Part shown: positions 1,158-62,629 of the stretch, one piece after another
How positions within the stretch are numbered: position 1 is the first letter of the stretch
How the letters are laid out: the number at the start of each line of letters is the position of its first letter
Source of the DNA: Candidatus Omnitrophota bacterium
Lineage (GTDB): Bacteria > Omnitrophota > Gorgyraeia > Zapsychrales > JANLHA01
Assembly: GCA_022711395.1 (NCBI GenBank)
Contig: JAKLFA010000002.1
Coordinates: 3,864-67,863 of the forward strand
Reading direction: 5' to 3'
DNA: 64,000 nucleotides
Program-made: the position numbers and the translations under genes
The notes under the pieces: model-generated
What the model saw: only the letters and a program-made list of their open reading frames with translations
Database searches by the model: none
What the model was told of the DNA's origin: nothing

Positions 1158-1278
1158 GAGCGCTCTCACCACTTTAAGTTAGACTGGATTTATTATACAG
1201 GAGTTCATTGGGATTGCCAGCCGCTTTGATGGTGTTTGAGGTGAAGATTTTTCAAGGCCTAAAAAAGCCACTTTCTCA

Positions 1279-1307: not shown

Positions 1308-1336
1308 AAAAGCGATCCATTAAACAGGAGGAACGA

Positions 1337-1651: not shown

Positions 1652-1673
1652 ACGTTGCAAGGAGGCTTAAGCC

Positions 1674-3678: not shown

Positions 3679-3754
3679 GGGCCATTAGCTCATCTGGTAG
3701 AGCAACTGACTCTTAATCAGTGGGTGGCTGGTTCGATTCCAGCATGGCCCACCA
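3679..3754 (+). tRNA. tRNA-Lys (anticodon CTT)
   Basis: Cloverleaf folds by hand: acceptor GGGCCAT/ATGGCCC, D-arm GCTC-ATCTGGTA-GAGC, anticodon stem ACTGA/TCAGT with loop CTCTTAA (CTT), T-arm GCTGG-TTCGATT-CCAGC, discriminator A and encoded CCA. Confidence 0.9.
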
Positions 3755-14310: not shown

Positions 14311-14540
14311 GACACAGGACACATGACACACGACACACGAAAACCTTAAAAACAGAAAAAAGACACAGGACACATGACACATGACACACGACACACGAAA
14401 ACCTTAAAAACAGAAAAAAGACACAGGACACATGACACATGACACAGGACACACGAAAACCTTAAAAACAGAAAAAAGACACAGGACACATGACACATGA
14501 CACAGGACACAGGACACAGGACACATGACACATGACACAT
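14311..14540 (+). repeat. higher-order tandem array: 4 units of ~58 bp, each (GACACAN)x4-5 + AAAACCTTAAAAACAGAAAAAA (family A)
   Basis: Direct reading of the sequence. An inverted partner TTTTAAGATTTTCGTGTGTCATGTGTCTTT lies at 14683-14711. No unique spacers, so not CRISPR. Confidence 0.9.
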
Positions 14541-14727
14541 GGGAAAACAGAAACAAAAACCGGGGATTAATACGCGTCTGAGGTGAGAGGACGCTTAAAA
14601 TAGCATGAAGCAGGATTTGGCAGTTCGTTCCTTATAATTTTAATGATTTTGATTTGTATTTTTTCGTATGCTTTGTTTTTATTTTAAGATTTTCGTGTGT
14701 CATGTGTCTTTAATTTGAGGAACCCAA

Positions 14728-24433: not shown

Positions 24434-24552
24434 AGGACGGATAATTGATAACGGATAGCGGAGAGAAGATACAAGGAGAACGGGAAACAGAGAACAGATA
24501 ACGGATTTTAAGGTTTTGATTTTTCCGCTTTCCGTCATCTGTTCTCTATCAT
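24401..24552 (+). repeat. family-C palindromic element
   Basis: GGAGAACGGAGAACGGAGAATGGAGAATAG ... GGATTTTAAGGTTTTGATTTTTCCGCTTTCCGTCATCTGTTCTCTATC. The first part encodes the C-terminus ...DDGERRTENGE* of the AbiEii protein. Confidence 0.85.
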
Positions 24553-39926: not shown

Positions 39927-41096
39927 ATGTCTAATAAGATAAATATTCTTTTCGTTCTTCCGAATTTTGATACGGGAGGATCCGAGAAGCTGGTGGTGGA
40001 TCTAGCCAGCCATCTCAATCCCGAGCGTTTCAGTCCGGTGATCTGTGTCTTTTTTTCGGGTGTGTATGAAGCAAAGGTTAAGGAGCTCGGGATCCCGTTT
40101 TATTGTGTGCATGAGGGCGGAAAGATTCGCTCCAGGATCGGGAGCATCAAATTTTTGAACAAAATCATTTCTGACCACAAGATAGACATAGTCAATACTC
40201 ATCACACAAGTCCTTTAGTCCAGGGGTTGTTGTCTTTTAAGGTTTTTAATCGGGTTCGAATTATTCATACCGAACACACGCGGCTGGATTGTTATGACTT
40301 TATCAAGCCGAGGCACATCGCGCTTTTAAAATTCTGTTTGCGGTGCGTTGATAGGGTATTAGGAATATCTGAAGGGGTATGTGCATATTTCCGTAATGAA
40401 CTTGGTATCCCGGACCGCAAAATTATGAAGATATTGAATGGGGTAGACGTTAATAACTTCAGGATAATGGACAATGGAAAAGGGAGGATGGAAAAGCGCC
40501 AAGAACTCGGGATCGGTGAGAATGATATAGTTATTGGGACTTTTGCGAACTTCAGAAAACAAAAGAATCATGGGCTTTTGCTCAAGGCGGTGAAATTGCT
40601 GCGAGATAAAGGGATTAATAATATTAAGGTTGTGTTTGCCGGGGATGGCCCTGAGCGACAAAATATCGAACAAATGATCCAGGACCTGTGTCTTGTGTCC
40701 TGTGTCCTGTGTCTTGGCGCACGCCAAGACATTCCCGAGCTGATGAATATGCTCGATATTTACTGCCTGCCGTCACATTTTGAAGGCTTGCCGATCAGTC
40801 TGATCGAAGCTTTTGCCGCTGGAAAGCAGGTCGTGGCAACGGATGTGGATGGGAATAGGGACGTGGTTCGTGAAATGGGCACTGGAATTCTTGTGAAACC
40901 AGACGATCCTGAAATGCTGGCTGAAGCAATTTTAAAGATAATGGAGGGCGGAGTGCGGAACACGGATGATTCAAAGGGTCCGTCTTCCGTTCTCCGTTCT
41001 CCGTTCTCCTTTGAGAGCATGATAAAAAATTACGAAGATCTATTTCAAAGTTTTGTCAGGAAAGAATGGGAAGAAAGAAATGAAAAGATTCGTTAA
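39927..41096 (+). CDS. glycosyltransferase family 4 with two in-frame repeat insertions
   Basis: GT4 motifs (SHFEGLPISLIEAFAAGKQVVATDVDGNRD). Insert 1 at 40683-40716 is a family-A reverse array encoding LCLVSCVLCLG. Insert 2 at 40941-41010 is a family-C palindrome encoding GGVRNTDDSKGPSSVLRSPFSF. Confidence 0.8.
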   Translation: MSNKINILFVLPNFDTGGSEKLVVDLASHLNPERFSPVICVFFSGVYEAKVKELGIPFYCVHEGGKIRSRIGSIKFLNKIISDHKIDIVNTHHTSPLVQGLLSFKVFNRVRIIHTEHTRLDCYDFIKPRHIALLKFCLRCVDRVLGISEGVCAYFRNELGIPDRKIMKILNGVDVNNFRIMDNGKGRMEKRQELGIGENDIVIGTFANFRKQKNHGLLLKAVKLLRDKGINNIKVVFAGDGPERQNIEQMIQDLCLVSCVLCLGARQDIPELMNMLDIYCLPSHFEGLPISLIEAFAAGKQVVATDVDGNRDVVREMGTGILVKPDDPEMLAEAILKIMEGGVRNTDDSKGPSSVLRSPFSFESMIKNYEDLFQSFVRKEWEERNEKIR

Positions 41097-44785: not shown

Positions 44786-45994
44786 ATGGCTAATGATTCA
44801 AAAAATCTTAGAGTGCTGCATCTTCGAAGTTCGGGGGGATTCTACGGTGCTGAGGCGGTGATTGTCAATCTCGCCAAGGAGCAGTTGCGTCAGAATGTGG
44901 ATGTGTGTGTTGGCGTGCTTGTTCGCTCGGATGTGGAGGATGTTGAGCATAGCCCGTTGGCGCTACGTTGCAAGGAAGAGGGGATCCCTGTCCGTCTGTT
45001 TCCCTGCCGGGGAAAATTTGATAAACAGACCATTCAGAATATCCGGGAGCGCCTGCAAAAAGACAAAGTCGGGATTCTCCACACCCATGATTACAAGGCG
45101 TCTCTGTTTGGATTATTCGCGAGTAAAAATTTACCGATCAAGCGGGTTGTGACCAACCATCTTTGGACCAAGGCGAATTTTAAATTGCGCTGTTATGAGG
45201 TGATGGAAGGGATCTTATGCAATTGGTTTGATCAGGTGATCGCGGTCTCAGATACGATTTATAAAGACGTCAGACCGTTTTTGTTAAGAAAGAATAAACA
45301 CAAGCTGGCGGTAATTCTCAACGGCATCAATTGCGCAAACTTTTCGCGACAGACACATGACACAGGACACAGGACACAAGATCAAGAAAAAAATATTTTT
45401 ACGATCGGAATGGTTGGGAGGTTGAGTGTTGAAAAGGGACACATCTATTTGCTGAAGGCGTTTGAAAAATTAATAAGAATGACACATGACACACGACACA
45501 CGACACAGGGTGGAGTTAAGAGCCTGCGGCTTTTGATCATAGGTGATGGGCCGTTGCATGAGAGGTTGGTGCAGTTAGTACATCGGACTAAGATCCTGCG
45601 CGGAAAGGTTCGGTTCTTACCTGCGCAGAAAGATATCAAAAAGTTCTACGACCAAATGGATGTATTGGTTCTGCCGTCATTAAGTGAAGGGCTGCCCATG
45701 ACATTGTTGGAAGGCATGGCGATGGAGCTGCCGGTTGTGGCCACACGTGTTGGCGGTGTGCCGGATGTGATCAAGGACGGATTTAATGGGCTTCTTGTTG
45801 ATCCGGCGGAGGTTGAGCAATTAACAGAAGCGATTAAGAAAATAATAAATATGACACATGACATACGACACATGACACAGGGGGAGGCAAGAGAATTGAA
45901 GGAATTGACGACAAATGCCAGAGAAACAGTCGAGTTGCATTTTTCAACCCAGCGTATGGCGGCGGAATATTTGAACGTATATAAAAATTTATAA
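44786..45994 (+). CDS. glycosyltransferase family 4 with three in-frame family-A repeat insertions
   Basis: GT4 core (SLSEGLPMTLLEGMAMELPVVATRVGGVPDVIKDGFNGLLV). Inserts at 45350-45382 (RQTHDTGHRTQD), 45480-45508 (MTHDTRHTTQG) and 45852-45880 (MTHDIRHMTQG). Confidence 0.8.
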   Translation: MANDSKNLRVLHLRSSGGFYGAEAVIVNLAKEQLRQNVDVCVGVLVRSDVEDVEHSPLALRCKEEGIPVRLFPCRGKFDKQTIQNIRERLQKDKVGILHTHDYKASLFGLFASKNLPIKRVVTNHLWTKANFKLRCYEVMEGILCNWFDQVIAVSDTIYKDVRPFLLRKNKHKLAVILNGINCANFSRQTHDTGHRTQDQEKNIFTIGMVGRLSVEKGHIYLLKAFEKLIRMTHDTRHTTQGGVKSLRLLIIGDGPLHERLVQLVHRTKILRGKVRFLPAQKDIKKFYDQMDVLVLPSLSEGLPMTLLEGMAMELPVVATRVGGVPDVIKDGFNGLLVDPAEVEQLTEAIKKIINMTHDIRHMTQGEARELKELTTNARETVELHFSTQRMAAEYLNVYKNL

Positions 45995-45995
45995 C

Positions 45996-46130
45996 GGACA
46001 CACGACACATGACACACGACACACGGTATACGACACAGGACACAGGACACAGGACACAGGTTAGAACCCTTGTGCCTTGTGTCTTGTGTCTGTGTGTCTG
46101 GTTTTTGTGTCTTGTGTCTTGTGTCTGCCT
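45996..46130 (+). repeat. family-A palindromic element (GACACAN heptamers / inverted CTTGTGTC array) spanning stop-to-start
   Basis: Direct reading of the sequence. The right arm encodes the Cys/Leu/Val-rich N-terminus of the next ORF. Confidence 0.85.
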
Positions 46131-48963
46131 TTTGGGATGCAGCAAGCTAGAACCTAAAGAAGAAGCGTCTGAATCCAAAAAGGCAATACCGTATGATGCA
46201 AAGAAGGGGATGTTTAGTGATTTTGAAGGATCGGATCCGGTGTCGTGGGGTGGGGTCTCTACGGAGATAGTGCAAGGCGGGGAATGTGGGGAATTGGAAA
46301 ATGGAAAAGGGAATATGGAAAATGGAAAAGTCAAAACCGACAATCATTCAAATCCCTTTTCTATCGTCCATTCTCCATCTTCCAGTACAAATAAATGTTT
46401 AAAAGTGACCTACCCCAAAGGGGATTTTCCAGGCCTTAGCGCTAAGCGTCTGCCGTCGGACTGGTCGAATTTCGGCATATTGGTCATGGATGTTTTTAAT
46501 CCTTCCGAGGAGGTTGTTCCTTTCGGGATCCTTATTAAGGACAAGCCCGGCGGCCACAGCTATCCCAACCGGTTGGACAAGCAGTTTGCGTTTAAACCTG
46601 GTAAAAACAAGTTTATTTTTAATATCACAGGGCTCAAAACCAATGACGGCAAGCGCCAGATGGACCTGTCGCAGATCATGGAATTGATCGTGTTCTTGTC
46701 TCAACCAAAAGAACCGGTCACTCTGTATTTTGATAACATCCGTTTGGAACATGCCGCGGGTTCAGAGATCGAGGGGATGAAGCGTTTTGATCTTGGCACA
46801 CAGGGTTCTGAAGTCTGGCCGGGCTTTTTGCAGGTCACGGACAAGACACATTATAGTGAAGAGGCCGGTTACGGCTGGTCGTATTTAGGCCAGGCGGATG
46901 CTCAGGACAGAGGGCAGTATCCGGATGCTTTGTTTCGGGACTGGATCCGCACGGCAACGCCGTTTAAAGTGGATGTCAAGAACGGCCAGCATGTGGTGTA
47001 TGTGATGCTGGAGGATCCTGGGGCGTGGGAATATTATCAAAATTTTAAAGAGCGCCGGTTTTATGCTGAAGATGTTCTTGTCGGTGAAGACAAGATGACT
47101 CCCGAACAATTTTTTAGCGATCATTATTATCGGCACATGAACCATGAGGACTTTCCCGGACAGGATGTGTTTGAGGAGTATGTGCAGAAGCGTTTTGTCT
47201 GGAAGCGTTTTGTCATCGATGTTGCGGATCGTCAATTGACATTAAAATGCGAGCCGAATACCGCTTATGCCTGCACGATCAGCGCGATCATCACCGCGCC
47301 TCTTGAGCAGGATGATAAAGTTCAGCAATATTTGAAACTTCTCGATCGTCAGCGCAAAGAGTTTTTTGATGGACAGTATGTCGAAAAGGTCCCGCAGTTT
47401 GATTCTCTGGATGAAAAGCTGGTGAAACAATATCAAAGCCTCGGGTTCATCCCGTTTGTCAAAAATTATGATCAGATGTTATATCCTGCAGAACCTCCGA
47501 AAAAGAGTCAAGCGGTTGATCGAATTCAGATCTTCGCGGCACAGGGAGAAAAAGAGCCTTTTGTGATTGGGATCTATCCGCTGCAGGCTGGTGGGCAGTT
47601 GCATGTTGACATAACAGATTTGGTTTTAAATGATGGTGTAAAGATTCCAAGCGATGCAATTTTGATCCGTTGGGTGCAGTACCGTCTAAAACGGATGTAT
47701 AGTGGCAGAGTTTATAGTGTGGTCGGAGATATGTTACGAACTAATAGCCAGGTTGTTTTAAAGAAGGGGCAGACAAGGTATTTTTGGTTTACGGTGAACG
47801 TTTCTAAAGATGCTCGTCCGGGAGATTATAAAGGGTCTGTCATTATTCGTGAGAATAACGTCGAGGTAAAGAGAATCAGCGTGGAGTTGAAAGTTCTTCC
47901 ATTTGGGCTTGATGACCCCGACATTGCGATCGGGTTGTTTTACACGCTGCCTCCGCAGTTCAATTGGTATGAGGAAACACAAAACCAGCGGTGGACTGAG
48001 GTTGAAAGGCAACTTCAGGATATGCGTGACCATGGGATGAACACATTGGCTTTAAGTATTATGCCGGGTGTTAAGGCTATTAATGACAGCGGTGATGCGG
48101 AGTTGGACTTTGCCTTTTTTGATGACTTCCTGCACGCGTATAAGCATTTTGGTTTCGACAGGCCGGTCTCAGGCTATGGGCTGATTAGTGTTTTTCATCA
48201 GATCCGTCAAAAGACCGAAGGTAATCCGAAGCTTTTTGCAAAAGCCATGGAGAATGCGTTCGGCCAGATCCAGTGGCACGCACAGCAAATTGCTGGGGTG
48301 GATATGGTGGCAGGGTTGGCGGATGAGCTTTCTAATACGGGAGGTGCTGGAATCGATTCAATTATTCCAGCAGCGGAGGTATTAAAGAATGCGGGTATAA
48401 GGGCGACAGGATTTTTTAACAATCCAAAAGATATCAAAGTGTTTGATTATTTTTCTGATGTAACGGTAAGCAATGATATACATATTGATCAGGATTTTCT
48501 TTCTAGGGTGGAGAAATCAGGGGCGAATCTTTGGTTTTATAACACGGGCCATGACCGGTTTAGCTTCGGTTTGCATTTGTGGAAGACGAAGGCAAAGGGC
48601 AAGGTGCAGTGGCATTATCAATTGCCGTCTGTGGATCCTTATTTTGACCTGGATGGTAGGGAAGGAGATACATGCGCATCTTATCCATCACCTGCGGGCC
48701 CGATCAATACGGTGTGGTTTGAGCTGGCGCGGGAAGGGATCGATGATTACCGGTATCTTAAAATCCTTGAAAAGATGATGGAAGAGAGAAAAGGGAAGAT
48801 GGATGCGGATGCGACGATAGAGCGTGCTGAAAAGTTTTTAGAAGCGTTGAGGAAAGATATTCCCGTTGAGTTGGATAAGCGTAAAGAAATCCCGGATGAA
48901 TTTTATGATGTGACGCGAAAAACAGCGGCGGACCTTATAACGGAACTATTAAGGACGCCATGA
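46009..48963 (+). CDS. large secreted protein, probable lipoprotein (possible glycoside-hydrolase-like); true start uncertain (GTG/TTG within 46060-46080 plausible)
   Basis: The N-terminal hydrophobic stretch ending in LLGC|S resembles a lipobox. In-frame family-C insert at 46279-46384 (GELENGKGNMENGKVKTDNHSNPFSIVHSPSS). About 900-aa soluble region with no confident family. Confidence 0.45.
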   Translation: MTHDTRYTTQDTGHRTQVRTLVPCVLCLCVWFLCLVSCVCLLGCSKLEPKEEASESKKAIPYDAKKGMFSDFEGSDPVSWGGVSTEIVQGGECGELENGKGNMENGKVKTDNHSNPFSIVHSPSSSTNKCLKVTYPKGDFPGLSAKRLPSDWSNFGILVMDVFNPSEEVVPFGILIKDKPGGHSYPNRLDKQFAFKPGKNKFIFNITGLKTNDGKRQMDLSQIMELIVFLSQPKEPVTLYFDNIRLEHAAGSEIEGMKRFDLGTQGSEVWPGFLQVTDKTHYSEEAGYGWSYLGQADAQDRGQYPDALFRDWIRTATPFKVDVKNGQHVVYVMLEDPGAWEYYQNFKERRFYAEDVLVGEDKMTPEQFFSDHYYRHMNHEDFPGQDVFEEYVQKRFVWKRFVIDVADRQLTLKCEPNTAYACTISAIITAPLEQDDKVQQYLKLLDRQRKEFFDGQYVEKVPQFDSLDEKLVKQYQSLGFIPFVKNYDQMLYPAEPPKKSQAVDRIQIFAAQGEKEPFVIGIYPLQAGGQLHVDITDLVLNDGVKIPSDAILIRWVQYRLKRMYSGRVYSVVGDMLRTNSQVVLKKGQTRYFWFTVNVSKDARPGDYKGSVIIRENNVEVKRISVELKVLPFGLDDPDIAIGLFYTLPPQFNWYEETQNQRWTEVERQLQDMRDHGMNTLALSIMPGVKAINDSGDAELDFAFFDDFLHAYKHFGFDRPVSGYGLISVFHQIRQKTEGNPKLFAKAMENAFGQIQWHAQQIAGVDMVAGLADELSNTGGAGIDSIIPAAEVLKNAGIRATGFFNNPKDIKVFDYFSDVTVSNDIHIDQDFLSRVEKSGANLWFYNTGHDRFSFGLHLWKTKAKGKVQWHYQLPSVDPYFDLDGREGDTCASYPSPAGPINTVWFELAREGIDDYRYLKILEKMMEERKGKMDADATIERAEKFLEALRKDIPVELDKRKEIPDEFYDVTRKTAADLITELLRTP

Positions 48964-50387
48964 AAATCCTATTTCTTACCAAAGAACTTCCTTATCCCAT
49001 CAATTCCGGCGCGCGGATGCGTAGCTGGCATTATGTCCGTGGCCTAAGCCGGGCGGGCTATGTCCACATGGTATGTTTTGGCAGGCTTGAGGACAATCGT
49101 GAAGGCGCCAAGACGCTGAGGGAAATGGGCGTGGATGTGATCTTTGAAGATAAAGGTGGCAGACGCCTTTATCCGGTTCTGTCGCGGCTTGTGGGCCTGT
49201 TTTCACCATTGCCGTACGCGGTTTGGGTCCGCAGGTCTTCTGCAATGAAGGAGAAAATTCGCCGGATCATTCTTGAGTCGAGCTGTGAAGTCGCCGCTTG
49301 TGACGGTATCCATCAGGCCTTGAACATCCCGCTGGATGTGAACTGCCGAAAGATCCTGGATGAACATAATGTTGAGTCGACGCTCGTTGGCCGTTATGCG
49401 GCAGCCGAATCCAATCCGGTCAAAAAAACGTACGCGTTTTTAGAATGGCTGAAATTCCGCGCCTTTGAGAACCGGATGTGGAAAAAATTTGATGAGATCC
49501 ACGTCTGTTCTTCGGTTGATAAACATGAGGTGGAGAAGCGGACTGGGCACAAGAATGTGCATGTTGTGCCTAACGGCGTTACTATCGAGTCACTAAGGCA
49601 CTATGACACTAAGGCACTAAAAAATACCGACACTGAGGCGCCAAGACACTGTGACACTAAAACATCAGGTGTTGCTAGTGCCATAGTGTCTCAGTGTCTA
49701 GTGTCACCAAGCGGAGATAAGCCGTTCCGTTTGGTTTATAGCGGTTTGATGGGTTGGAAACCTAACGAAGATGCGGCGCTTTACTTCGGGCACAATATTT
49801 GGCCTGAAATAAAAAAGGCACTAAGGCACTGCGACACTAAGGCACTAAAAAATCAAGGCACTGGGGCACTAAGACACTGTGACACTAAAACTTCCGATGG
49901 TTCTAGTGCCATAGTGTCTGAGTGTCATAGTGTCTCAATTGAGTGGTTTATAGTTGGAAGAGGGCCTACTCAAAAAGTAAAAGAATTGGCTGAGAATGAT
50001 GAGTCGATCACCGTCACCGGCGAGGTCGCGGACGTGAAGCCGTTGGTGGAGTCTGCGGATATCGTGATCGTGCCCTTGCGGATCGGAAGCGGGACCCGGC
50101 TGAAGATTTTGGAAGCTATGGCCATGAGTAAGCCCGTTGTCTCGACCTCGATCGGGTGTGAAGGCCTGGATGTCACCAGTGGTGAAAATATTGTGATCGC
50201 TGATATGCCGGAGGATTTTGCGAGTACGGTTTTAAAATTAATGAACGATCCTCAAGAGCGCGCGCGTATTGCCGAGAATGGGCGCAGGTTGGCGGAAGAG
50301 AAGTATGATTGGGAGATTATTGAAAAAAGTTTAGCGGAATTAATCATGACACTCAGGCACAAAGACACTGAGGCACTGAGAACGTGA
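48960..50387 (+). CDS. glycosyltransferase family 4 with two complete in-frame family-B palindromic insertions and a repeat-derived C-terminal tail
   Basis: GT4 core (PLRIGSGTRLKILEAMAMSKPVVSTSIGCEGLDV). Inserts at 49591-49708 and 49817-49936 each encode ~RHYDTKALKN...RHCDTKTS...SAIVSQC.... Tail ...LRHKDTEALRT* at 50347+. Confidence 0.8.
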   Translation: MKILFLTKELPYPINSGARMRSWHYVRGLSRAGYVHMVCFGRLEDNREGAKTLREMGVDVIFEDKGGRRLYPVLSRLVGLFSPLPYAVWVRRSSAMKEKIRRIILESSCEVAACDGIHQALNIPLDVNCRKILDEHNVESTLVGRYAAAESNPVKKTYAFLEWLKFRAFENRMWKKFDEIHVCSSVDKHEVEKRTGHKNVHVVPNGVTIESLRHYDTKALKNTDTEAPRHCDTKTSGVASAIVSQCLVSPSGDKPFRLVYSGLMGWKPNEDAALYFGHNIWPEIKKALRHCDTKALKNQGTGALRHCDTKTSDGSSAIVSECHSVSIEWFIVGRGPTQKVKELAENDESITVTGEVADVKPLVESADIVIVPLRIGSGTRLKILEAMAMSKPVVSTSIGCEGLDVTSGENIVIADMPEDFASTVLKLMNDPQERARIAENGRRLAEEKYDWEIIEKSLAELIMTLRHKDTEALRT

Positions 50388-50468
50388 AAACGTGAAAAGT
50401 GAAAATGGGGAAAGACATTTTGGTTTTGGGGTTTTTAGTGCCATAGTGTCTTAGTGTCACAGTGTCTT
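50347..50468 (+). repeat. family-B palindromic element bridging two genes
   Basis: Left arm GACACTCAGGCACAAAGACACTGAGGCACTGAG + AACGTGAAAACGTGAAAAGTGAAAATGG. Right arm TTTTGGTTTTGGGGTTTTT + AGTGCCATAGTGTCTTAGTGTCACAGTGTCT. Confidence 0.85.
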
Positions 50469-50483: not shown

Positions 50484-51671
50484 ATGACTTTCTTTTTCTA
50501 TTTATTTTTATTTCTCATTTTCTACACCTACATCGGTTATCCGGTCTTGATCGCTTTTGTTTCGCAGTTCTTTCGGGAAGATGGAAAAGGGAAGATGGAA
50601 AGGGGAAAATCCAAAGCAGAGGATAATTCGCAGCCATTCTCCATCATCCATTCTCCATTTTCGGTTTCAATAATTATTCCTGCCTATAACGAGGAAGAAG
50701 CGATCGCGCAGAAGCTCGAGGAGGTCCTAGCGTTTGATTATCCCAAAGACAAGCTGGATGTCATGGTTGTTTCGGATTGTTCAGTTGACCGGACGGATGA
50801 AATTGTGCGTGGGTTTGAATCCCGCGGTGTGCGATTGCTCCGCATGGAAAAGCGCGGCGGCAAGATCGCCGGCTACAAGGCGGCAGTGGCGCAGGCTGCG
50901 GGCGAAATTCTGGTTTTTTCGGATGCGACCAGCCGTATGGAACCCGGCGGTTTAAAAAAGCTGCTCCGTCCGTTTGCTGATCCTGACGTGGGTGTTGTCG
51001 CCGGGCGGCTGGTATATATCGACCCTAAAAAGGCAGACATTGCCAAAGGGGAACAGACCTATTGGAGCTATGAAGGCCGGATCAAGGATTGGGAAGAAAA
51101 GATCTTTTCGCTCACGTCTGTTTCAGGGACGTTTTACGGGGTCCGTAAAGAATTGTTTCCTTTAGAAATGGCCAATGACCTGGCTGATGATCTGATCGTG
51201 GTCTTGAATTGTGTTCTGCACGGCAAGCGCGCGGTGCTTGAAAAGGAGGCCGTCTGCCGTGAATACGCGATCCACGCGGATTCCGCGGAAGTGAATAAGC
51301 GTTCGCGGATCACGGTGCAGAACCTGCGCGGCTTATTCAGTATGCCGCGGATGATGGATCCGTTCAAATTTGGCTGGTATGCGGTGTTGATCATTTCGCA
51401 TAAGTTATTGCGCGCTCTGGTGCCGGTTTTTTTGGTCGGGGTCTTGATCAGCAATATTTTTATTGTCGAGCAATGGTGGATGTTTCGTTTGATTCTGGTG
51501 GCGCAGATCGGGTTTTATATGCTGGGGGCGCTGGCCAGCGTCTGGCAGGACAAGCGGCCCAGATGGCTGAATATCATTTATTATTTTTGCGTGAGCAATC
51601 TGGCGATTCTGTGGGGTATTATCCGGTTTTTGCGCGGCGAGCGCATGGCGACGTGGGAAACCGCGCGTTAA
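50484..51671 (+). CDS. membrane glycosyltransferase family 2 with an in-frame family-C insertion
   Basis: GT2 motifs (IIPAYNEEEAI, VVSDCSVDRT, VFSDATS). Insert at 50577-50663 encodes EDGKGKMERGKSKAEDNSQPFSIIHSPFSVS. Start at 50484 chosen because it lies just after the repeat. Confidence 0.8.
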   Translation: MTFFFYLFLFLIFYTYIGYPVLIAFVSQFFREDGKGKMERGKSKAEDNSQPFSIIHSPFSVSIIIPAYNEEEAIAQKLEEVLAFDYPKDKLDVMVVSDCSVDRTDEIVRGFESRGVRLLRMEKRGGKIAGYKAAVAQAAGEILVFSDATSRMEPGGLKKLLRPFADPDVGVVAGRLVYIDPKKADIAKGEQTYWSYEGRIKDWEEKIFSLTSVSGTFYGVRKELFPLEMANDLADDLIVVLNCVLHGKRAVLEKEAVCREYAIHADSAEVNKRSRITVQNLRGLFSMPRMMDPFKFGWYAVLIISHKLLRALVPVFLVGVLISNIFIVEQWWMFRLILVAQIGFYMLGALASVWQDKRPRWLNIIYYFCVSNLAILWGIIRFLRGERMATWETAR

Positions 51672-57204: not shown

Positions 57205-58431
57205 ATGTTAAAAAAGATCCTGGTCACTGGTGGCGCTGGTTTTATCGGTTCACACACGGTTGTGGAACTGGCCAATGCCGGTTATGAGCCGGTGATCGTG
57301 GATAATTTCAGCAATTCCAGCCGCGGCGTCCTTAAAAACCTCAAAAAGATCCTCGCCCGTGAAGTCACCTGTTATGATGGCGACTGCTGTGACCGTTTGT
57401 TTCTTGAACAGGTTTTTACCAAAGAGAAAAATATTCAGGGAGCGATCCATTTCGCGGCGCTCAAGGCGGTGGGGGAGTCGGTCAAAGAGCCGCTCTTGTA
57501 TTACCGTAACAATATCGATTCGCTGCTCGTCTTGCTGGACGTGATGAAGGAGTATGGCGCACAGCTGTTCGTGTTTTCTTCATCGGCGACTGTTTACGGC
57601 GCGGCGGACCGGCTGCCGGTCACCGAAGAAACTCCGCTTAAGCCTGCGGAATGCCCGTATGGCGTGACCAAGCAGGTGGGAGAGCAGATCGTGCGGGACG
57701 CGGTCACAGCCGGTTACGGCTTAAAGGCGGTTTCTTTGAGGTATTTCAATCCGATCGGCGCGCACGAAACCGCCCTGATCGGAGAACTTCCGATCGGCGT
57801 GCCCAAAAACCTGGTTCCCTATGTCACCCAGGTCGCTGCCGGCCTGTTGCCGGAGCTGACCGTGCACGGCAATGATTATTCGACACCGGACGGGACTCCT
57901 ATCCGTGATTATATCCATGTCCTTGATTTGAGTGCGGCCCATGTCGCGGCGTTGAAATATTTAACTAAGACACTAGGACACTATGACACTAAGGCACTAA
58001 GAAACAAAAACGCTGAGGCACTAAGACACTGTGACACTAAAAAATCAGATGTTACGAGTGCCATAGCTCTGCGGAATTCGCAGAATTCCTCAGAATTAGT
58101 CCCCGGAGGGATGTCTGAGTGTCATAGTGCCGATGGTTTGAGTGCCTTAGTGCCTGAGTGTCTCAGTGCCTCAGTTGGTTATGATGTCTTCAATCTCGGC
58201 ACCGGCAAAGGCAACAGCGTGATGGAAGTGATCTCGACATTTGAAAAGGCCACCGGCGTGAAGCTCAAATATAAGATCGGCCCGCGCCGTCCCGGGGACA
58301 TTGAATCGATCTATGCGGACGCTTCCAAAGCGGAAAAATTACTGGGCTGGAAAGCAAACCGCTCTTTGTCCGACTCATTGAAGAGCGCGTGGGAGTGGCA
58401 GAAGAATATCAGCATAAAGGGTAAAGCGTAA
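57205..58431 (+). CDS. galE: UDP-glucose 4-epimerase with ~70-aa in-frame family-B palindromic insertion
   Basis: Classic GalE N-terminus MLKKILVTGGAGFIGSHTVVEL, the YGVTK (YxxxK) motif and C-terminal FNLGTGKGNSVMEV. Insertion at 57966-58173, between ...AAHVAALKYL and GYDVFNLG, encodes TKTLGHYDTKALRNKNAEALRHCDTKKSDVTSAIALRNSQNSSELVPGGMSECHSADGLSALVPECLSASV. Confidence 0.85.
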   Translation: MLKKILVTGGAGFIGSHTVVELANAGYEPVIVDNFSNSSRGVLKNLKKILAREVTCYDGDCCDRLFLEQVFTKEKNIQGAIHFAALKAVGESVKEPLLYYRNNIDSLLVLLDVMKEYGAQLFVFSSSATVYGAADRLPVTEETPLKPAECPYGVTKQVGEQIVRDAVTAGYGLKAVSLRYFNPIGAHETALIGELPIGVPKNLVPYVTQVAAGLLPELTVHGNDYSTPDGTPIRDYIHVLDLSAAHVAALKYLTKTLGHYDTKALRNKNAEALRHCDTKKSDVTSAIALRNSQNSSELVPGGMSECHSADGLSALVPECLSASVGYDVFNLGTGKGNSVMEVISTFEKATGVKLKYKIGPRRPGDIESIYADASKAEKLLGWKANRSLSDSLKSAWEWQKNISIKGKA

Positions 58432-58445
58432 AGGGCAGGCAAACG

Positions 58446-58787
58446 ATGAAGATCGTTGATAAAAAACTTTCTCGCGAAGATCTGGATCTGATGGCAAAGG
58501 ACATGTTCGGTGATCTGGTCAAAGCCGTCGTCGATGTCGAACGCCAGGTCATTGCGTTAAACGCTGAATTGCATTCAGATCTGGAAGCCCTTCTGCTGGA
58601 GGATGGTTCAGCGCAAAAAAATCTGTGGGGGATCAATCTTTATCCTGCGATGGAAGGAGAGGATTTCATTGAATTTGATTCCATGATCAATATGCGGCCT
58701 TCACAGGGGAATATGAGCCGTGGGGTGGATGATCGGGGCATTCAAAAAAATATCATTGAGATCGTTATGAAACGGATATCAGGATGA
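58446..58787 (+). CDS. hypothetical protein
   Basis: 113-aa ORF immediately after galE; no confident family. Confidence 0.3.
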   Translation: MKIVDKKLSREDLDLMAKDMFGDLVKAVVDVERQVIALNAELHSDLEALLLEDGSAQKNLWGINLYPAMEGEDFIEFDSMINMRPSQGNMSRGVDDRGIQKNIIEIVMKRISG

Positions 58788-59116
58788 TCATTCAGCATAA
58801 AAATTTGAGCGAAGGCCGGTGGCAGAATTTTTCGCTGATGGAGCAGCTGGCCAATATCGGCAGTGAGGTCAGCCGGGCTTTAAATTGGCGCGGTAAAAAT
58901 AATTCTGAATACGCTCAAAAGGCTTCTGGACGGGCCCTGGAACTGCTCGATCTGACTCTTGACCAAAAACAGACATTTGTTCGATACAGAGAATTGTGCC
59001 GGTTAAGAGAAGCATTGGTCGATTATTTTTATGGGGAGAACCAGTTCGCTTCGAGCGAGAGCTTGTGGCGTAAATATTTTGATCATTTTAATTTTGCGTC
59101 AAGAAAAGAAAGATAG
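58784..59116 (+). CDS. hypothetical protein
   Basis: 110-aa ORF translationally coupled to the upstream ORF. Confidence 0.3.
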   Translation: MIIQHKNLSEGRWQNFSLMEQLANIGSEVSRALNWRGKNNSEYAQKASGRALELLDLTLDQKQTFVRYRELCRLREALVDYFYGENQFASSESLWRKYFDHFNFASRKER

Positions 59117-59121
59117 ACCCT

Positions 59122-60042
59122 ATGAAAAAGCATTATCCGTTTTTTCTTTCATTTTTCCTGGTTTTACTGGCATACGTGCCGACGTTCGACTGGATGCGGA
59201 TCCGGTGGTTTTCGGCCAGTTCGTATTACAGCCACGGGGTCCTTGTTCCGTTCGTCGTGGCGTATCTGATCTGGCAGAAGTGGCCGGAAATATTGGAGAC
59301 ACTAAGGCACTGTGACACTAAGACACTGAAAGACACGGAGACGCCACGACACTCAGACACGATGACACTAAAAAACAAAGGCGCTGAGGCGCCAGATGTT
59401 GCAAGTGTCACAGTGTCACAGTGCCCTAGTGCCTTAGGATTACCGTTAATCGTGATAGGGTTATTGGCCCATATCTTCAGTTCCGTGATGCGGGTGGGGT
59501 TCATTTCCGGCTTTTCCATGTGGGTGGTCCTGGCCGGGCTGATCCTGCATTTTTACGGGATGAAAATGTTCAAGACCGTGCTGTTTCCGCTGGTGTTTCT
59601 GCTTTTTATGATCCCGTTGCCTGAACTCATTGTGGTCAATGTTTCGTTCCGGATGAAGATGTTCGCCGCCGGGATCGCGGAGAAGGTCATTAACGCCATG
59701 GGTATTTTGGCGATCAGGGAGGGCAGCGTGATCCGCATGCCCAATGCCTTTGTGGTGGTGGATGATGTCTGTTCGGGCCTGCGCAGCCTGATCTCTCTGA
59801 CGGCGCTGGGAAGTATTTTTGCCTACTGGTTCAAGGGCCCGATGTGGAAGCGCTGGCTGGTGTTTGCCATGACCGCTCCGATCGCGGTGGCCACAAACGT
59901 CTGCCGGGTGGTGCTTTTGTCTTTTGTCGCCGAAGTCTGGGGGCATGAGGCGGCCAGCGGCTTTGTGCACGATCTTTCGGGGTTTAGCGTATTCGCCCTG
60001 GCGTTTCTGATGCTGTTGGCGTTCGGGAAGATGATTGAATGA
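59122..60042 (+). CDS. xrtA: exosortase (EpsH/XrtA-type) with in-frame family-B palindromic insertion
   Basis: N-terminal ...SYYSHGVLVPFVVAYLIW and DDVCSGLRSL (active-site Cys region). Multiple TM helices. Insertion at 59297-59438 encodes ETLRHCDTKTLKDTETPRHSDTMTLKNKGAEAPDVASVTVSQCPSALG. Assignment to the A subtype is inferred from the EpsI gene nearby. Confidence 0.8.
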   Translation: MKKHYPFFLSFFLVLLAYVPTFDWMRIRWFSASSYYSHGVLVPFVVAYLIWQKWPEILETLRHCDTKTLKDTETPRHSDTMTLKNKGAEAPDVASVTVSQCPSALGLPLIVIGLLAHIFSSVMRVGFISGFSMWVVLAGLILHFYGMKMFKTVLFPLVFLLFMIPLPELIVVNVSFRMKMFAAGIAEKVINAMGILAIREGSVIRMPNAFVVVDDVCSGLRSLISLTALGSIFAYWFKGPMWKRWLVFAMTAPIAVATNVCRVVLLSFVAEVWGHEAASGFVHDLSGFSVFALAFLMLLAFGKMIE

Positions 60043-60048
60043 AAACCA

Positions 60049-60097
60049 TGACACTAAGGCACTAAGGCACTAAGGCACTGAGACACTAAGGCACTAA
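60049..60097 (+). repeat. family-B left arm (GACACTAAGGCACTAAGGCACTAAGGCACTGAGACACTAAGGCACTAA)
   Basis: Forms the left half of a giant palindrome whose right half is at 60512-60647; the four-helix-bundle gene lies in the loop. Confidence 0.85.
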
Positions 60098-60147
60098 AAG
60101 AAATCATCCCAAAAGTAATCCCCTAGAGAAATAACACGGAGGATGAA

Positions 60148-60507
60148 ATGGGTGAGCAGGTAGGATATAAAAAACTTTTTGTATGGCAGAAGGCAGATCA
60201 ATTTGCATTTGAGATTTATGGTGCGAGCGAGGGTTTTCCGAGGAAGGAAATGTTTGGTCTGACATCACAGTTGAGGAGAGCGGCTTTATCGATTCCAACA
60301 AATTTGGCAGAAGGTCAGGGCCGGCAGGGCAGGAAAGAGTTCCGGCAATTTGTGAATATTGCATTGGGTTCTGCGACAGAGGTTGAGTATTTGTTAGATT
60401 TTGCGTGTCGTTTAAAGTATTTGGATGAAAAGGCGAGTATCCGATTGCAGGGTCTTCGCAGGGAAGTTAGTTCGCTGTTGTGGAAGTTATTACAAAGTTT
60501 GTCTTAA
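60148..60507 (+). CDS. four-helix-bundle protein (23S rRNA intervening-sequence protein family, TIGR02436-like)
   Basis: 119 aa with ...KADQFAFEIYGASEGFPRKEMFGLTSQLRRAALSIPTNLAEGQGR...ALGSATEVEYLLDFA..., characteristic of this family. Confidence 0.8.
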   Translation: MGEQVGYKKLFVWQKADQFAFEIYGASEGFPRKEMFGLTSQLRRAALSIPTNLAEGQGRQGRKEFRQFVNIALGSATEVEYLLDFACRLKYLDEKASIRLQGLRREVSSLLWKLLQSLS

Positions 60508-60511
60508 TCGG

Positions 60512-60647
60512 TTTTTAGTGTTTTTAGTGCCGTAGTGTCTTAGTGTCACAGTGTCTTGTTTTAGGTTTTCAGTGCCATAGTGCCTTAGTGTCATAGTGTC
60601 TTGTTTTAGGTTTTCAGTGCCATAGTGCCTTAGTGTCCTAGTGTCTT
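60512..60647 (+). repeat. family-B right arm, 2 x [AGTGCCATAGTGCCTTAGTGTCATAGTGTCT + TGTTTTAGGTTTTC]
   Basis: Reverse complement of the octamer array at 60049-60097. Ends 15 bp before the RBS region of epsI. Confidence 0.85.
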
Positions 60648-60665
60648 TTACAGTAAGGATTTTCC

Positions 60666-61304
60666 ATGAAAAAACATTTCTTTTTTATTCTCATTATTAC
60701 GTTGACTATTGTCGCAGGCGCGGTGTCCTGGTCGATGTTTTTGCGGACGCATGATGCGCAGGACACGGTGGATGTGTTCGATTTTCCCATGGTCATAGGA
60801 GAATGGGAATCTGAAAACATCCCGATCTCGGACAATGATTACGCGGTCCTTGAGACGCGCAACGCCTTTGTCCGCATCTACCGCAAGCCCACCGGCGAAG
60901 AGGTGATGCTTTACGTGATCTATTCCCAGACCAACCGCCGCGTGGCGCATCCTCCGGAGATCTGCTACACCGGCGGAGGGTCCACCATTGTGAGCAAATT
61001 CCCTGAAAAGATCGCGACGGACGCTGTCACGGACGGTTCCATCACCGCTAACCGGCTTCTCATTGATTATCCCAATTATCAGCAGATCATGTATTACTGG
61101 TTCAAGGTCGGCAATAGTTACACGGCCAGTTACTGGGCCGGCCAGGCGATGATCGCCTGGAAAAACATGACCGGCCAGTCGTCCAGCAGCGCGTTGATCC
61201 GTTTGACCTCAGTGGTTGAGGATGATGACCAGCAGCGCGCTGTTGATATCATCCGCGGGTTTGCCGCGGAGATCCTGCCGCTTCTTAATCAATACATTCC
61301 ATAA
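60666..61304 (+). CDS. epsI: EpsI-family protein (exosortase-associated)
   Basis: N-terminal TM helix. ...VIGEWES...VIYSQTNRRVAHPPEICYTGGGS matches the EpsI signature (HxPExC...G). Confidence 0.75.
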   Translation: MKKHFFFILIITLTIVAGAVSWSMFLRTHDAQDTVDVFDFPMVIGEWESENIPISDNDYAVLETRNAFVRIYRKPTGEEVMLYVIYSQTNRRVAHPPEICYTGGGSTIVSKFPEKIATDAVTDGSITANRLLIDYPNYQQIMYYWFKVGNSYTASYWAGQAMIAWKNMTGQSSSSALIRLTSVVEDDDQQRAVDIIRGFAAEILPLLNQYIP

Positions 61305-61308: not shown

Positions 61309-61505
61309 GGCACTAAGGCACTAAGGCACTAAGGCACTAAGGCACTAAGGCACTAAGGCACTAAGGCACTAAGGCACTAAGGCACTAAGGCACTAAGGCA
61401 CTAAGGCACTAAGGCACTAAGGCATTGGTATCTTAGTGACTAGGTTTTAAGGGTTTAAGGTTTTTAGTGTCTCAGTGTCATAGTGTCCTAGTGTCTTGTT
61501 TTAAG
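61309..61505 (+). repeat. (GGCACTAA) x ~14.5 perfect tandem octamer array followed by inverted family-B arm
   Basis: 61309-61424 is a pure 8-mer array. It is followed by GGTTTTAAGGGTTTAAGGTTTTTAGTGTCTCAGTGTCATAGTGTCCTAGTGTCTTGTTTTAAG. Confidence 0.95.
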
Positions 61506-61783: not shown

Positions 61784-62629
61784 ATGTTCAGAACAAGAAA
61801 AAAAGTTAAAAATTTTGCGTCACTTTTGATATTAATCATTGCGGGGCTGTTTGTTACAACAACCGCCTGGGCTGCTGTCACGGTCATGACCGCTGATCAG
61901 GAAAAGAACGGTGTCTATCACTCGGAAGACAGAGGCGTTGCCGGCCCTTCAGATGGAGTGAAATCCCGCGCCCCGGAACCTTCGACCCTGGCGCTGTTCG
62001 CCAGCGGGCTGATGGGGATGATCGTTTCATTTGTCCGTAAGACCTATCATGTGACCAAGCGCATTCTGGATATCGCGGCCGGTGTTTTGGGGTTGGTCGT
62101 TCTTTCTCCGTTGTTTTTGCTCACCGCGGTCCTTATTAAATTGACGTCCAAGGGGCCGATCTTTTACACCCAGGTCCGGGTGGGAAAAGACGGCGTCCCG
62201 TTTAAAATGTATAAATTCCGCACGATGCGCACGGATGCCGAAATGGGCACCGGTGCTGTCTGGGCCAAAGAAAATGATGACCGTATCATTCCGGTCGGAC
62301 GATTTTTACGCAAGGCCCATATTGATGAAATCCCTCAATTTTTAAATATTTTAAAAGGCGATATGTCTTTGATCGGCCCGCGCCCTGAACGGCCGGAATT
62401 CGTGAAGAAGCTTTCGCTGCAGATCCCGGATTATGAAAAGCGCCTGCGCGTGAAGCCCGGTCTGACCGGTTTGGCGCAGGTTTGGCACCGTTATGATGAA
62501 ACGCTTGCGGATGTTCGCAAAAAGGTCAAATATGACCTGATGTATATTAAGAAGGTTTGTCTTTGGACGGACCTCAGGATCTTTTTCAGGACCTTCCGGG
62601 TCGTTGTGACCGGTGAAGGGGCGCATTGA
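61784..62629 (+). CDS. polyprenyl-phosphate sugar phosphotransferase (bacterial sugar transferase, EPS priming enzyme) with an N-terminal signal-peptide + PEP-CTERM-like module
   Basis: C-terminal Bac_transf domain (FKMYKFRTM, DEIPQF, LIGPRPERPEF). The N-terminal 86 aa comprise signal peptide MFRTRKKVKNFASLLILIIAGLFVTTTAWA and APEPSTLALFASGLMGMIVSFVRK. Confidence 0.8.
   Translation: MFRTRKKVKNFASLLILIIAGLFVTTTAWAAVTVMTADQEKNGVYHSEDRGVAGPSDGVKSRAPEPSTLALFASGLMGMIVSFVRKTYHVTKRILDIAAGVLGLVVLSPLFLLTAVLIKLTSKGPIFYTQVRVGKDGVPFKMYKFRTMRTDAEMGTGAVWAKENDDRIIPVGRFLRKAHIDEIPQFLNILKGDMSLIGPRPERPEFVKKLSLQIPDYEKRLRVKPGLTGLAQVWHRYDETLADVRKKVKYDLMYIKKVCLWTDLRIFFRTFRVVVTGEGAH

Follow-up and report, generated by a model that had tools for sequence, protein, structure and literature searches.

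A probable hairpin-bounded gene cassette of the 23S rRNA intervening-sequence type, carrying a four-helix-bundle gene between an exosortase gene and epsI

To our knowledge, the open reading frame (ORF) carried by intervening sequences (IVS) of 23S rRNA has been without a known function since 1993, and recent papers still label its protein family as uncharacterised; so far as we are aware, there is no explanation either for the short heptamer repeats that occur in tandem in cyanobacteria and in xanthomonads. The cyanobacterial STRR are tandem repeats of heptamers that form short arrays comparable to the GGGAATC arrays of Xanthomonas, and the Rickettsia palindromic elements (RPE) lie in frame within protein-coding genes, where they are tolerated as extra peptide loops; those of which we know are single units of 100–150 nt, having neither tandem sub-repeats nor an associated four-helix-bundle (4HB) gene. 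For the IVS of Coxiella, a stem of 28 bp has been described, with two to three tandem GACAGAT heptamers 5′ of the start codon of an S23p ORF; RNase III cuts at the first of the GACAGAT repeats, and the ORF itself was reported as probably not expressed (PMC4990558). The GGGAATC repeats of Xanthomonas mostly comprise four 7-nt units and often occur as convergent inverted pairs some tens of nucleotides apart (Rehm et al. 2015, PMC4692102). They were treated in that study as G-quadruplex-forming simple-sequence repeats, with no mention of S23 or four-helix proteins in the main text; its supplement shows the gene XCC0516 (PDB 2GSC) lying between inverted GGGAATC arrays that belong to a family of 186 genomic sites (PMC4692102). 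Lastly, Avd, the four-helix-bundle protein of diversity-generating retroelements (DGRs), binds RNA stem-loops adjoining its own gene (bioRxiv 10.1101/2023.10.23.563531).

The element with which this report is concerned lies in the exosortase/epsI spacer of an exopolysaccharide operon, within a stretch of DNA of 64 kb (hereafter the window) to which the coordinates of the element and its neighbours refer. It begins 3′ of an exosortase gene of 306 aa (59122–60042, + strand; PF09721, 206.5 bits), whose product scores 166.2 bits against the general family model TIGR02602 (NCBIfam; cut-off 105.55) and 154.3 bits against the XrtA model TIGR03109, for which the cut-off is 208. On these profile scores the gene can be assigned to the general family, but its identity as XrtA is not established, and the name xrtA given to it in an earlier, sequence-only reading of this DNA has been dropped. 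The left (5′) arm of the element (60049–60098, +) consists of six tandem octamers RCACTRAG (by Tandem Repeats Finder, TRF, 60052–60097, period 8, 5.8 copies, 89% matches), and is followed by a leader (60099–60147, +) with an A-rich spacer (AAAAGAAATCA) and, at 60138–60143, GGAGGA as ribosome-binding site (RBS). After this comes the gene for a 119-aa 4HB protein of the S23p family (60148–60507, +), and then the right (3′) arm (60513–60654, +), in which there are three 45-nt units (60520–60564, 60565–60609 and 60610–60654), each composed of a T-rich spacer and four octamers TAGTGYCN that are the reverse complement of the left arm; TRF reports this arm as 60513–60647, with period 45, 3.0 copies and 93% matches (direct-repeat family D1). 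Beyond it lies epsI (60666–61304, +; 212 aa), identified by the model TIGR02914, the threshold of which it passes at 108.7 bits, and by PF11984 (124 bits). The end of the exosortase gene, both arms, the 4HB gene and the start of epsI are all confirmed in the positions that the sequence-only reading had given them. Independent assemblies in JGI, ENA and Logan data reproduce the element, the copy number of the arms differing between strains; in one strain variant, L003, the right arm is shorter by one 45-nt unit. No Rfam family covers the arrays, and the sole Rfam match in the 64-kb window is a tRNA at 3679–3751.

It is probable that 60049–60654 represents a gene cassette bounded by a hairpin and alike in kind to the ORF-bearing IVS of 23S rRNA, housed in this case in a protein-coding operon. 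In common with the IVS of Leptospira and Coxiella (Ralph & McClelland 1993; Warrier et al. 2016), it has a member of the same protein family in its loop, terminal inverted repeats capable of a stem of roughly 28–45 bp, and arms of tandem heptamers or octamers in strain-variable number (as seen for GACAGAT in Coxiella, in Azospirillum and in L003), and in both cases the distribution is sporadic and decaying ORFs are found. It is unlike them in having protein-coding genes, those of an exopolysaccharide operon, as its neighbours rather than lying in a 23S rRNA helix (9, 25 or 45), in that its ORF is strongly constrained by purifying selection and has a good RBS, and in that palindromes of its repeat family, devoid of a gene, recur at many places in the genome, some of them inside ORFs.

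As regards the protein, family membership extends over the full length: residues 12–118 match profile positions 1–108/109 of TIGR02436 at 111.5 bits (cut-off 24), and PF05635 gives 120.9 bits (cut-off 33.8). Its homologues in the PDB are 2GSC (E = 2.5e-18) and 2RLD (E = 9.3e-8), and both of these entries contain five chains. Between copies of the gene at different loci dN/dS is 0.04–0.11, which indicates that the 4HB gene is under strong purifying selection. The only family matches of the protein are to four-helix-bundle models, with no Y1 (IS200/IS605-type) transposase among them, and no match was found in a tblastn search of 50,697 phage records, or on comparing the DNA of the whole cassette with plasmids. 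Avd shares the homologous pentameric four-helix-bundle fold. One might consider whether the locus could be the remnant of a DGR (an Avd gene bereft of its reverse transcriptase) or else a cassette of the integron type, with attC sites: the protein gives a weak match of 23.2 bits to the Avd model NF033474, and the gene is small, lacks a promoter and runs in the same direction as the genes beside it. However, the Avd score is far below the cut-off of 80, a reverse transcriptase gene is absent from the 10 kb to either side, as is an integrase gene from the 4 kb upstream and the 10 kb downstream, and the flanks are left-only and right-only arrays, not the template/variable direct repeats of a DGR and not a self-palindromic attC at the 3′ end; either origin can hardly be credited, and both were rejected on these grounds. 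A MITE or TIR transposon was also rejected, as there is no visible target-site duplication at the cassette borders at the three loci where these could be compared, and no transposase gene within about 10 kb on either side. Farther upstream than 4 kb, the only entries of the gene table without an assigned function are the AbiEii gene and three adjacent ORFs.

The two arms are 83–93% complementary over 27–47 nt in several registers (inverted-repeat pairs I1–I17). In the minimum-free-energy RNA fold of 60030–60680 the left arm pairs with one of the right-arm units and the ORF is enclosed; the energy of this fold (−197.5 kcal/mol, z = −3.8) is reached by none of 20 shuffled sequences. Judged by complementarity and predicted fold, the element thus has the terminal inverted repeats of a 23S rRNA IVS, that is to say a long stem around the whole, and a failure of the arms to pair, which the sequence-only reading had named as an outcome that would count against it, was not what was found. 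Because the tandem units pair in several registers, co-variation of the arms was judged at the level of arm families. A scan for promoters and terminators gave counts no higher than the shuffled expectation and nothing within the cassette, including no sigma-70-like promoter.

The explanation proposed for the cassette is that a promoterless 4HB gene with its own RBS has an RCACTAAG array on its 5′ side and, on its 3′ side, arrays of the octamer's inverse, and that in the operon transcript these arms would, as the fold model predicts, form a stem of some 30–45 bp. By analogy with the Coxiella IVS, RNase III may cleave this stem, and cleavage would free a stem-capped 4HB mRNA, after which the element could be tolerated cheaply whether in operons or in rRNA. 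The gene-less octamer arrays of the genome, including those read through inside ORFs, would to judge from their sequences be kin of the cassette arms, the pentameric 4HB protein may bind its cognate repeats in the way that Avd binds RNA stem-loops, and the simplest candidate for the movement of the cassette would be recombination between arrays. Some features would also suit a purely cis-acting hairpin, in which the arms would do no more than govern how stable the 4HB mRNA is or how it is processed or translated, inheritance would be vertical, and the gene-less arrays would be unrelated simple-sequence repeats: the ORF is enclosed by the stem in the predicted fold, the cassette is without a promoter in the scan, and across the family the arms hug the ORF closely (see below).

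At the exosortase–epsI junction the cassette-free state, which the sequence-only reading had suggested should be sought, occurs in three outgroup genomes. The two genes are 16 nt apart in L130, where gene order is conserved, and overlap by 4 nt in L147 and L148, where the order of the downstream genes is conserved; in L128, by contrast with these empty sites, a decayed 4HB gene (with a premature stop and a deletion of about 96 nt) is present at the junction between the same arms as in the window. The earlier suggestion of a cassette insertion is therefore supported, in the sense that the cassette appears to be a derived insertion between genes that adjoin or overlap in outgroups, a polarity that is assigned by parsimony because empty sites are known only at 46–63% EpsI identity; among the genomes compared there is no clean empty/filled pair at high identity. 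Two close relatives have different cassettes at the same place: in L123 (EpsI 94% identical) the 4HB protein is 41% identical and the arms are GCGTAAAG, and in L127 (EpsI 84% identical) the 4HB protein is 57% identical and the arms are GACACAT, with a remnant of an L123-type arm also present. Three different cassettes are known at this junction, and the arms that match one another in each belong to a different family, pairing scores being 54–59 for an arm with its own partner and 15–27 with the partners of the others. At this junction the 4HB genes of relatives are always flanked by arrays; a gene there without inverted arrays, which the sequence-only reading would have taken as evidence against itself, was not encountered.

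The converse situation, of one cassette at several loci, is seen for the closest homologues of the 119-aa protein (96%, 86% and 81% aa identity), all of which lie at loci other than the exosortase–epsI junction, namely beside a truncated rhuM gene or between pgk and tpiA, with arms CACTAAGG / CTTAGTG as in the window. In L010, L012 and L013 the cassette is 3′ of a RhuM gene that ends at profile position 55/252, and in L008 and L009 it separates pgk from tpiA, so that further copies of the 4HB gene bounded by the same arms, as had been anticipated, do exist. Homology among the copies at different loci starts and stops at the arrays, and the leader is kept in the rhuM cassettes of L010 and L012 and in the decayed copy of L128. 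The occurrence of one cassette type at three unrelated loci, and of three cassettes at one locus, all among close relatives, tells against a purely cis-acting hairpin inherited vertically, as do the octamer, polarity and A-rich/T-rich spacers common to the cassette and the gene-less arrays, and the presence of the same architecture inside rRNA; that reading is accordingly considered rather unlikely, and the IVS-type cassette is preferred. The rhuM site was rejected as an example of a clean insertion, and looks instead like a truncation or rearrangement: the missing four-fifths of the RhuM gene were not found downstream, where one frame, read from 2700, has 17 stop codons.

The layout is by no means peculiar to this locus. 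Tandem arrays of period 7 or 8 are present on both sides of 77 out of 105 4HB genes drawn from many phyla (73%), as against 34 of 301 control genes (11%; odds ratio 21.6, p = 2e-32), and an inverted-repeat score of at least 30 is reached by 60% of 103 4HB genes but only 3.7% of 465 control ORFs (odds ratio 40, p = 3e-39). The median arm has 4.1 copies and measures 31 nt, lying 21.5 nt 5′ of the ATG or 12 nt 3′ of the stop codon, and the polarity is always the same. The motif CA[CT]N(A)AG upstream, together with its complement downstream, occurs in 48% of 4HB genes at 50% identity or above, in 0% of more distant ones and in 0% of controls, and the reverse polarity is never seen. Both neighbours run in the same direction as the gene in 76 of 85 cases, and the gaps to them have medians of 65 and 66 nt. 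Typically, then, 4HB-family genes across phyla have about four 7–8-nt repeats per side in fixed polarity and are co-oriented inside operons. There are exceptions: about a quarter have no detectable two-sided arrays, L022 and L023 have a complete palindrome on either side of the gene, and Pseudanabaena L135 has direct repeats instead. The layout is met not only in rRNA but also in operons (cas, atp, acc and pgk-tpi) and at loci for exopolysaccharides. The association accounts for the appearance of 23S_rRNA_IVP genes as spurious “cas-associated” genes. In Azospirillum lipoferum the 4HB ORF is within a 23S rRNA gene as an IVS, and its arms are tandem heptamers. A recurrent association of this protein family with hairpin elements, as the sequence-only reading envisaged, thus holds across phyla, in cultured organisms and in the 23S rRNA IVS of Azospirillum.

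It could nevertheless be objected that a small unrelated gene has merely come to lie between the two halves of an array in an array-littered genome. Arrays are indeed very frequent in the window, and in genomes bearing 4HB genes some 25–29% of control gene flanks have short arrays, so that arrays are abundant irrespective of the gene. Such a coincidence is nonetheless very improbable, given the enrichment over controls from the same loci (odds ratios 22–40, p < 1e-30), the same arms on the closest homologues elsewhere, and the fact that everywhere else in the window an array forms a whole palindrome confined to one spacer or ORF.

These remaining arrays call for further comment. The 64-kb window has at least ten gene-less left-to-right arrays of the cassette octamer, which agree with the cassette in octamer and polarity and also in having A-rich/T-rich spacers in sub-terminal position; each forms a whole left-loop-right palindrome inside one spacer or ORF, and the exosortase–epsI junction is the only site in the window at which a gene separates the two halves. 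One such array lies inside the exosortase ORF itself (59296–59432; TRF 59296–59369 and 59404–59423), where it is read through in frame and appears as a variable loop in the alignment of orthologues, L130 being without the loop. Another, next to epsI (61309–61497), consists of (GGCACTAA)x14.5, a perfect run (TRF 61309–61424, 100% matches), followed by a short loop and a right arm at 61464–61497. A third, found by TRF, lies in frame in galE (57964–58175), where it inserts 65 aa that are lacking from the orthologues of L128 (84% identity) and L130. Palindromic arrays lie in frame within galE, within the exosortase gene and within that of a GT4 glycosyltransferase, a likeness to the RPE, and more generally such arrays can be recognised as giving rise to in-frame insertions, and to breaks in assembly, among genomes of uncultured bacteria. 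In being mostly intergenic and sometimes intragenic, the Xanthomonas GGGAATC repeats are similar to the arrays of the window (PMC4692102).

The existence of many gene-less arrays beside one gene-bearing copy brings to mind REP/REPIN elements and their RAYT genes, which share with the cassette a gene between inverted short repeats, the recurrence of the same repeat in many gene-less palindromes, and distinct protein–repeat pairs. The parallel is only partial: RAYT is a Y1 (IS200/IS605-like) transposase whereas the cassette protein is, by homology, a non-enzymatic pentameric four-helix bundle, and REP are single palindromes of 20–40 nt whereas the cassette arms are tandem arrays of 7–8-mers. On a reading of this kind the 4HB protein would be the trans-acting factor of the dispersed arrays, binding its cognate 7–8-nt repeats in RNA or ssDNA hairpins (approximately one unit per subunit of the pentamer) and promoting their spread, expansion or maintenance, and the repeat-flanked gene would be the master copy. 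This is compatible with the IVS-type cassette, of which it is an extension, but can be put forward only tentatively. It would be in keeping with the co-variation of protein variant and arm family, which is seen at the exosortase–epsI junction and also within the single genomes L084 and L114, with an arm motif that is conserved across phyla at 50% protein identity or more and different in more distant proteins, with the median of about four units per arm, which suits a ring-shaped oligomer (five chains in 2GSC), with the gene-less arrays of the window, with the bracketing of XCC0516 by the same GGGAATC arrays that occur 186 times in Xanthomonas, and with the strong purifying selection on the protein. 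Against it, no catalytic activity is known for the 4HB protein, and the co-variation could mean that gene and arms are transferred together as a unit without interacting. Furthermore, the window has at least four other array families and a single 4HB gene; for its GACACAY arrays no cognate 4HB gene was found, using the L127 protein as query, on the 516-kb contig that forms part of this genome, the nearest match in that search, at 63% identity, being located off the contig.

Taken to its furthest, the same line of thought would make the S23p/TIGR02436 proteins the specific partners of a large cross-phylum class of palindromic tandem heptamer/octamer elements, one that would take in the rRNA IVS and the arrays of the present genome, those inside ORFs included, together with the GGGAATC repeats of Xanthomonas and the cyanobacterial heptamers. 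The pentamer, as a REPIN/RAYT-like but non-enzymatic ring, would then recognise some four to five cognate 7–8-nt units in an RNA or ssDNA hairpin and drive or maintain the spread of the arrays; this, too, is a possibility that we regard as doubtful rather than likely. What the evidence does bring together is the ORF family of the IVS and the heptamer repeats, in that the gene usually lies in the loop of a hairpin with about four 7–8-nt repeats per arm, and protein and repeat change together across cassettes. No published link between 4HB genes outside rRNA and tandem-repeat arms was found in a search of full texts, a search that took in few subscription journals, so that an earlier description is possible. 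Questions as to both the IVS ORF and the repeats can now be tested in culturable organisms, such as Xanthomonas, where a crystal structure of XCC0516 is available, and Nostoc. Of the 15 plasmid-borne 4HB genes outside rRNA that were inspected in cultured organisms, 12 have arms that could be seen by eye, cyanobacterial genes except for that of Gemmatirosa.

The exosortase gene (59122-60042) and epsI (60666-61304) are separated in the window by a cassette (60049-60654) consisting of a left arm of six RCACTRAG octamers (60049-60098; 5.8 copies with 89% matches at 60052-60097 in Tandem Repeats Finder, TRF), an ORF of 119 aa (60148-60507), and an inverse right arm (60513-60654; TRF, 93% matches) of three 45-nt units, each comprising a T-rich spacer and four TAGTGYCN octamers. 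The ORFs and both arms lie where the sequence-only reading of 60043-60665 had placed them; its naming of the first gene as xrtA has to be given up, as the exosortase passes the general exosortase model but misses the XrtA-specific cut-off. The 119-aa product clearly belongs to the four-helix-bundle (4HB) protein family (TIGR02436, 111.5 bits; PF05635, 120.9 bits), with relatives in the PDB (2GSC, 2RLD). The arms can pair, as had been supposed: they are 83-93% complementary in several registers, and the predicted RNA fold of 60030-60680 (z = -3.8) pairs the left arm with one right-arm unit and encloses the ORF. The window was found within a 516-kb contig of JGI metagenome 3300010429, and the cassette structure was recovered in independent assemblies, including one strain variant with two fewer octamers in the left arm and one fewer 45-nt unit in the right.

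That this arrangement represents an insertion, as had been proposed, was borne out when relatives were ordered by EpsI identity and their exosortase/epsI junctions compared (L-numbers denote loci or contigs fetched from other genomes or metagenomes). Cassette-free junctions occur in L130 (EpsI 63%), where 16 nt separate the exosortase stop from the epsI start, and in L148 (53%) and L147 (46%), where the two genes overlap by 4 nt and the downstream gene order is unchanged. On this comparison, in which the empty sites come from fairly distant genomes, the empty state is therefore the ancestral one and the cassette derived. The closer relatives show repeated occupation of the site by distinct, replaceable cassettes: in L123 (94%) the arms GCGTAAAG and CTTTACGC enclose a different 4HB gene (41% identical); L127 (84%) has a third (57% identical) between GACACAT and ATGTGTC arms, with a remnant of an L123-type arm adjoining epsI; and in L128 (77%) the window's own gene is present as a decayed copy, with a premature stop and a deletion of about 96 nt, between short CACTAAGG and TAGTGTC arms. 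Every 4HB gene at the site in these three relatives thus carries inverted arms. Upstream arms match only their own downstream arm (cognate scores 54-59, non-cognate 15-27), and protein and arms co-vary. The same operon contains a second indel, a DUF5674 gene with an unassigned 110-aa gene (58446-59116) between galE and the exosortase gene; both genes are present in L128 and missing from L130, whose exosortase gene comes straight after galE. Also nearby, a polyprenyl glycosylphosphotransferase ORF (61784-62629) has a PEP-CTERM match (PF07589, residues 63-86) in an N-terminal extension preceding its Bac_transf domain, an odd position for a C-terminal sorting signal, and the ORF may be fused or mis-started.

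The 4HB proteins closest to that of the window (96%, 86% and 81% identity) are encoded away from exosortase/epsI, and the suggested check for other 4HB copies bounded by the same arms found them at two further loci, directly 3' of a RhuM gene ending at profile position 55 of 252 (L010, L012, L013) and between pgk and tpiA (L008, L009). All of these copies run from a CACTAAGG left arm, through a conserved leader that contains a ribosome-binding site and then the ORF, to TAGTGYC right arms; their homology across loci is bounded at both ends by the arrays, so that the cassette is demonstrably a multi-locus unit. Between copies at different loci dN/dS is 0.04-0.11, and the 4HB protein is therefore maintained by purifying selection. 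No target-site duplications were seen at cassette borders at three loci. As minor points, the 4HB ORF in L012 (2223-2663) has lost its stop codon (TCTCAATTGG rather than TCTTAATCGG) and extends into the right arm, giving 146 aa, while in L006 a short contig switches to unrelated sequence past the second right-arm unit (about 1340-1438), probably through chimeric assembly or through rearrangement at the arrays; this shows that the repeats break metagenome assemblies.

The generality of this layout was assessed in 32 metagenome loci and 80 species-representative genome loci encoding relatives of the window protein, from Omnitrophota, Planctomycetota, Nitrospinota, Nitrospirota, Elusimicrobia, Ignavibacteria, WOR-3 and others. 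Local alignment of each gene's 200-nt upstream flank with its reverse-complemented 200-nt downstream flank gave scores of at least 30 for 60% of 103 4HB genes, compared with 3.7% of 465 further ORFs from these loci (odds ratio 40, p = 3e-39). Period-7/8 arrays flank 77 of 105 4HB genes on both sides, as against 34 of 301 controls (TRF; odds ratio 21.6, p = 2e-32), arrays being common in 4HB-bearing genomes generally; roughly a quarter of 4HB genes have no such two-sided arrays, and a few loci show other arrangements. Median arms have 4.1 copies and 31 nt, placed 21.5 nt before the ATG and 12 nt after the stop codon. Most units are variants of CACAAG, CACCAG, CATAAG and CACTAAG, and at least two copies upstream together with at least two reverse-complement copies downstream were found for 48% of the 4HB genes with at least 50% identity to the window protein, for none of ten more distant ones (which use other units, e.g. 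CGTAAG, TCATAG, GTGACG) and for none of 304 controls; the opposite polarity was never seen, and arm polarity is fixed. Most 4HB genes (76/85) point in the same direction as the genes on either side, from which median gaps of about 65 nt separate them, and they lie within operons such as atpD/atpC and pgk/tpiA. Two genomes each have a cluster of two or three 4HB genes, no more than 2 kb apart, with distinct units matched upstream and downstream of each gene: GTCACMA, GTCGTAAG and CGAGATA in L084 (3408-5488), CAGCTTR and GCTCATA in L114 (4007-6170).

Cultured organisms extend the recurrent association of 4HB protein and palindromic element that had been suggested from a single locus. The layout is visible by eye in 12 of 15 non-rRNA, plasmid-borne 4HB genes inspected, cyanobacterial apart from Gemmatirosa; in Nostoc edaphicum, for instance, (GGGAGTA)x8 ... 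(CCCTACT)x4 surround a 4HB gene between nrdB and nrdA. Other 4HB cassettes sit inside CRISPR-cas operons, at cas6/cas4 in Anabaena 90 (L143) and Pseudanabaena (L135) and between cmr2 and cmr3 in Picosynechococcus PCC 7003 (L134), which is probably why 23S_rRNA_IVP surfaces as "cas-associated" in surveys. In Xanthomonas campestris there are 186 GGGAATC arrays, mostly of four units, 70 of them in convergent pairs (PMC4692102); one overlaps the start of XCC0516, a gene adjoining bccP, and an opposite-strand G-rich array lies about 370 nt away (PMC4692102 supplement), so that a crystallised 4HB protein (PDB 2GSC) is bracketed by a genome-wide repeat; that study leaves the protein family unmentioned.

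The closest known system is the ORF-bearing intervening sequence (IVS) of 23S rRNA, which has protein, stem and tandem-repeat arms in common with the cassette; the cassette lies outside rRNA, however, and so lacks the location that defines an IVS. In Azospirillum lipoferum, with a 4HB ORF inside the 23S rRNA gene (Rfam LSU 283-3291), the arms are tandem heptamers (CAGAGGA CGGATGA CAGAGGA CGGAGGA / CCGTCCT CTGTCTT CTGTCAT CCGTCTT), and in the Coxiella IVS, with its stem of 28 bp, tandem GACAGAT heptamers precede the S23p start codon; they number two to three, depending on the strain, and RNase III makes its 5' cut at the first of them (PMC4990558). The cassette resembles REPIN/RAYT systems (a repeat and its cognate transposase) in logic but not in protein. 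Identities as diversity-generating retroelement, integron cassette or MITE were rejected on the features tested. No description of the 4HB/repeat-arm association outside rRNA was found in the literature searched, coverage of which was incomplete; recent papers term the protein uncharacterised.

If the analogy with the IVS holds, the arms would fold into a stem in the operon transcript and RNase III would cut it; the cut would release the 4HB mRNA and allow operons and rRNA alike to tolerate the element. More tentatively, the 4HB pentamer might bind its cognate repeats, as Avd, a 4HB homologue from diversity-generating retroelements, binds RNA stem-loops.

The window also holds more than ten further arrays of the cassette's octamer, each a complete palindrome (left array 5', inverse 3'); only at 60049-60654 are the halves split by a gene. 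At least four other repeat families (GACACAY, GGAGAAC/GTTCTCC, GGGAAGA/CCATTCT, AGCGTAA) form palindromes of the same polarity (14311-14710, 45352-45507, 45849-46134, 24397-24548, 40986-41009, 50575-50659, 58411-58433). GACACAT and GCGTAAAG also make up the arms of the 4HB cassettes at exosortase/epsI in L127 and L123 respectively. Gene-less arrays may depend on the 4HB protein much as REPINs do on RAYTs. Some arrays lie in frame within ORFs and are read through. The galE ORF (57205-58431) holds a complete octamer palindrome (57964-58175), which adds 65 aa compared with the galE products of L128 (84% identical) and L130; where a unit would otherwise create an in-frame TAA its sequence is variant (e.g. 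TAT), suggesting that selection has favoured keeping the frame open. The exosortase ORF contains a variable array-derived loop, and a 475-aa glycosyltransferase (48960-50387) has two arrays (49591-49705, 49815-49935) in frame between a GT4 domain near its N terminus (residues 17-210) and a GT1 domain near its C terminus (residues 324-452), with a third (50350-50468) overlapping its stop codon. An array of the cassette's family (26816-26912) is in frame in a 300-aa ORF (26171-27073) that matches DUF1016_N over residues 57-131 and, weakly, SNase over residues 251-297; the ORF may be two gene fragments joined by the array. Finally, 61309-61424 comprises 14.5 perfect copies of GGCACTAA (100% matches), any other arm being far shorter and less clean, and this suggests a very recent slippage expansion.
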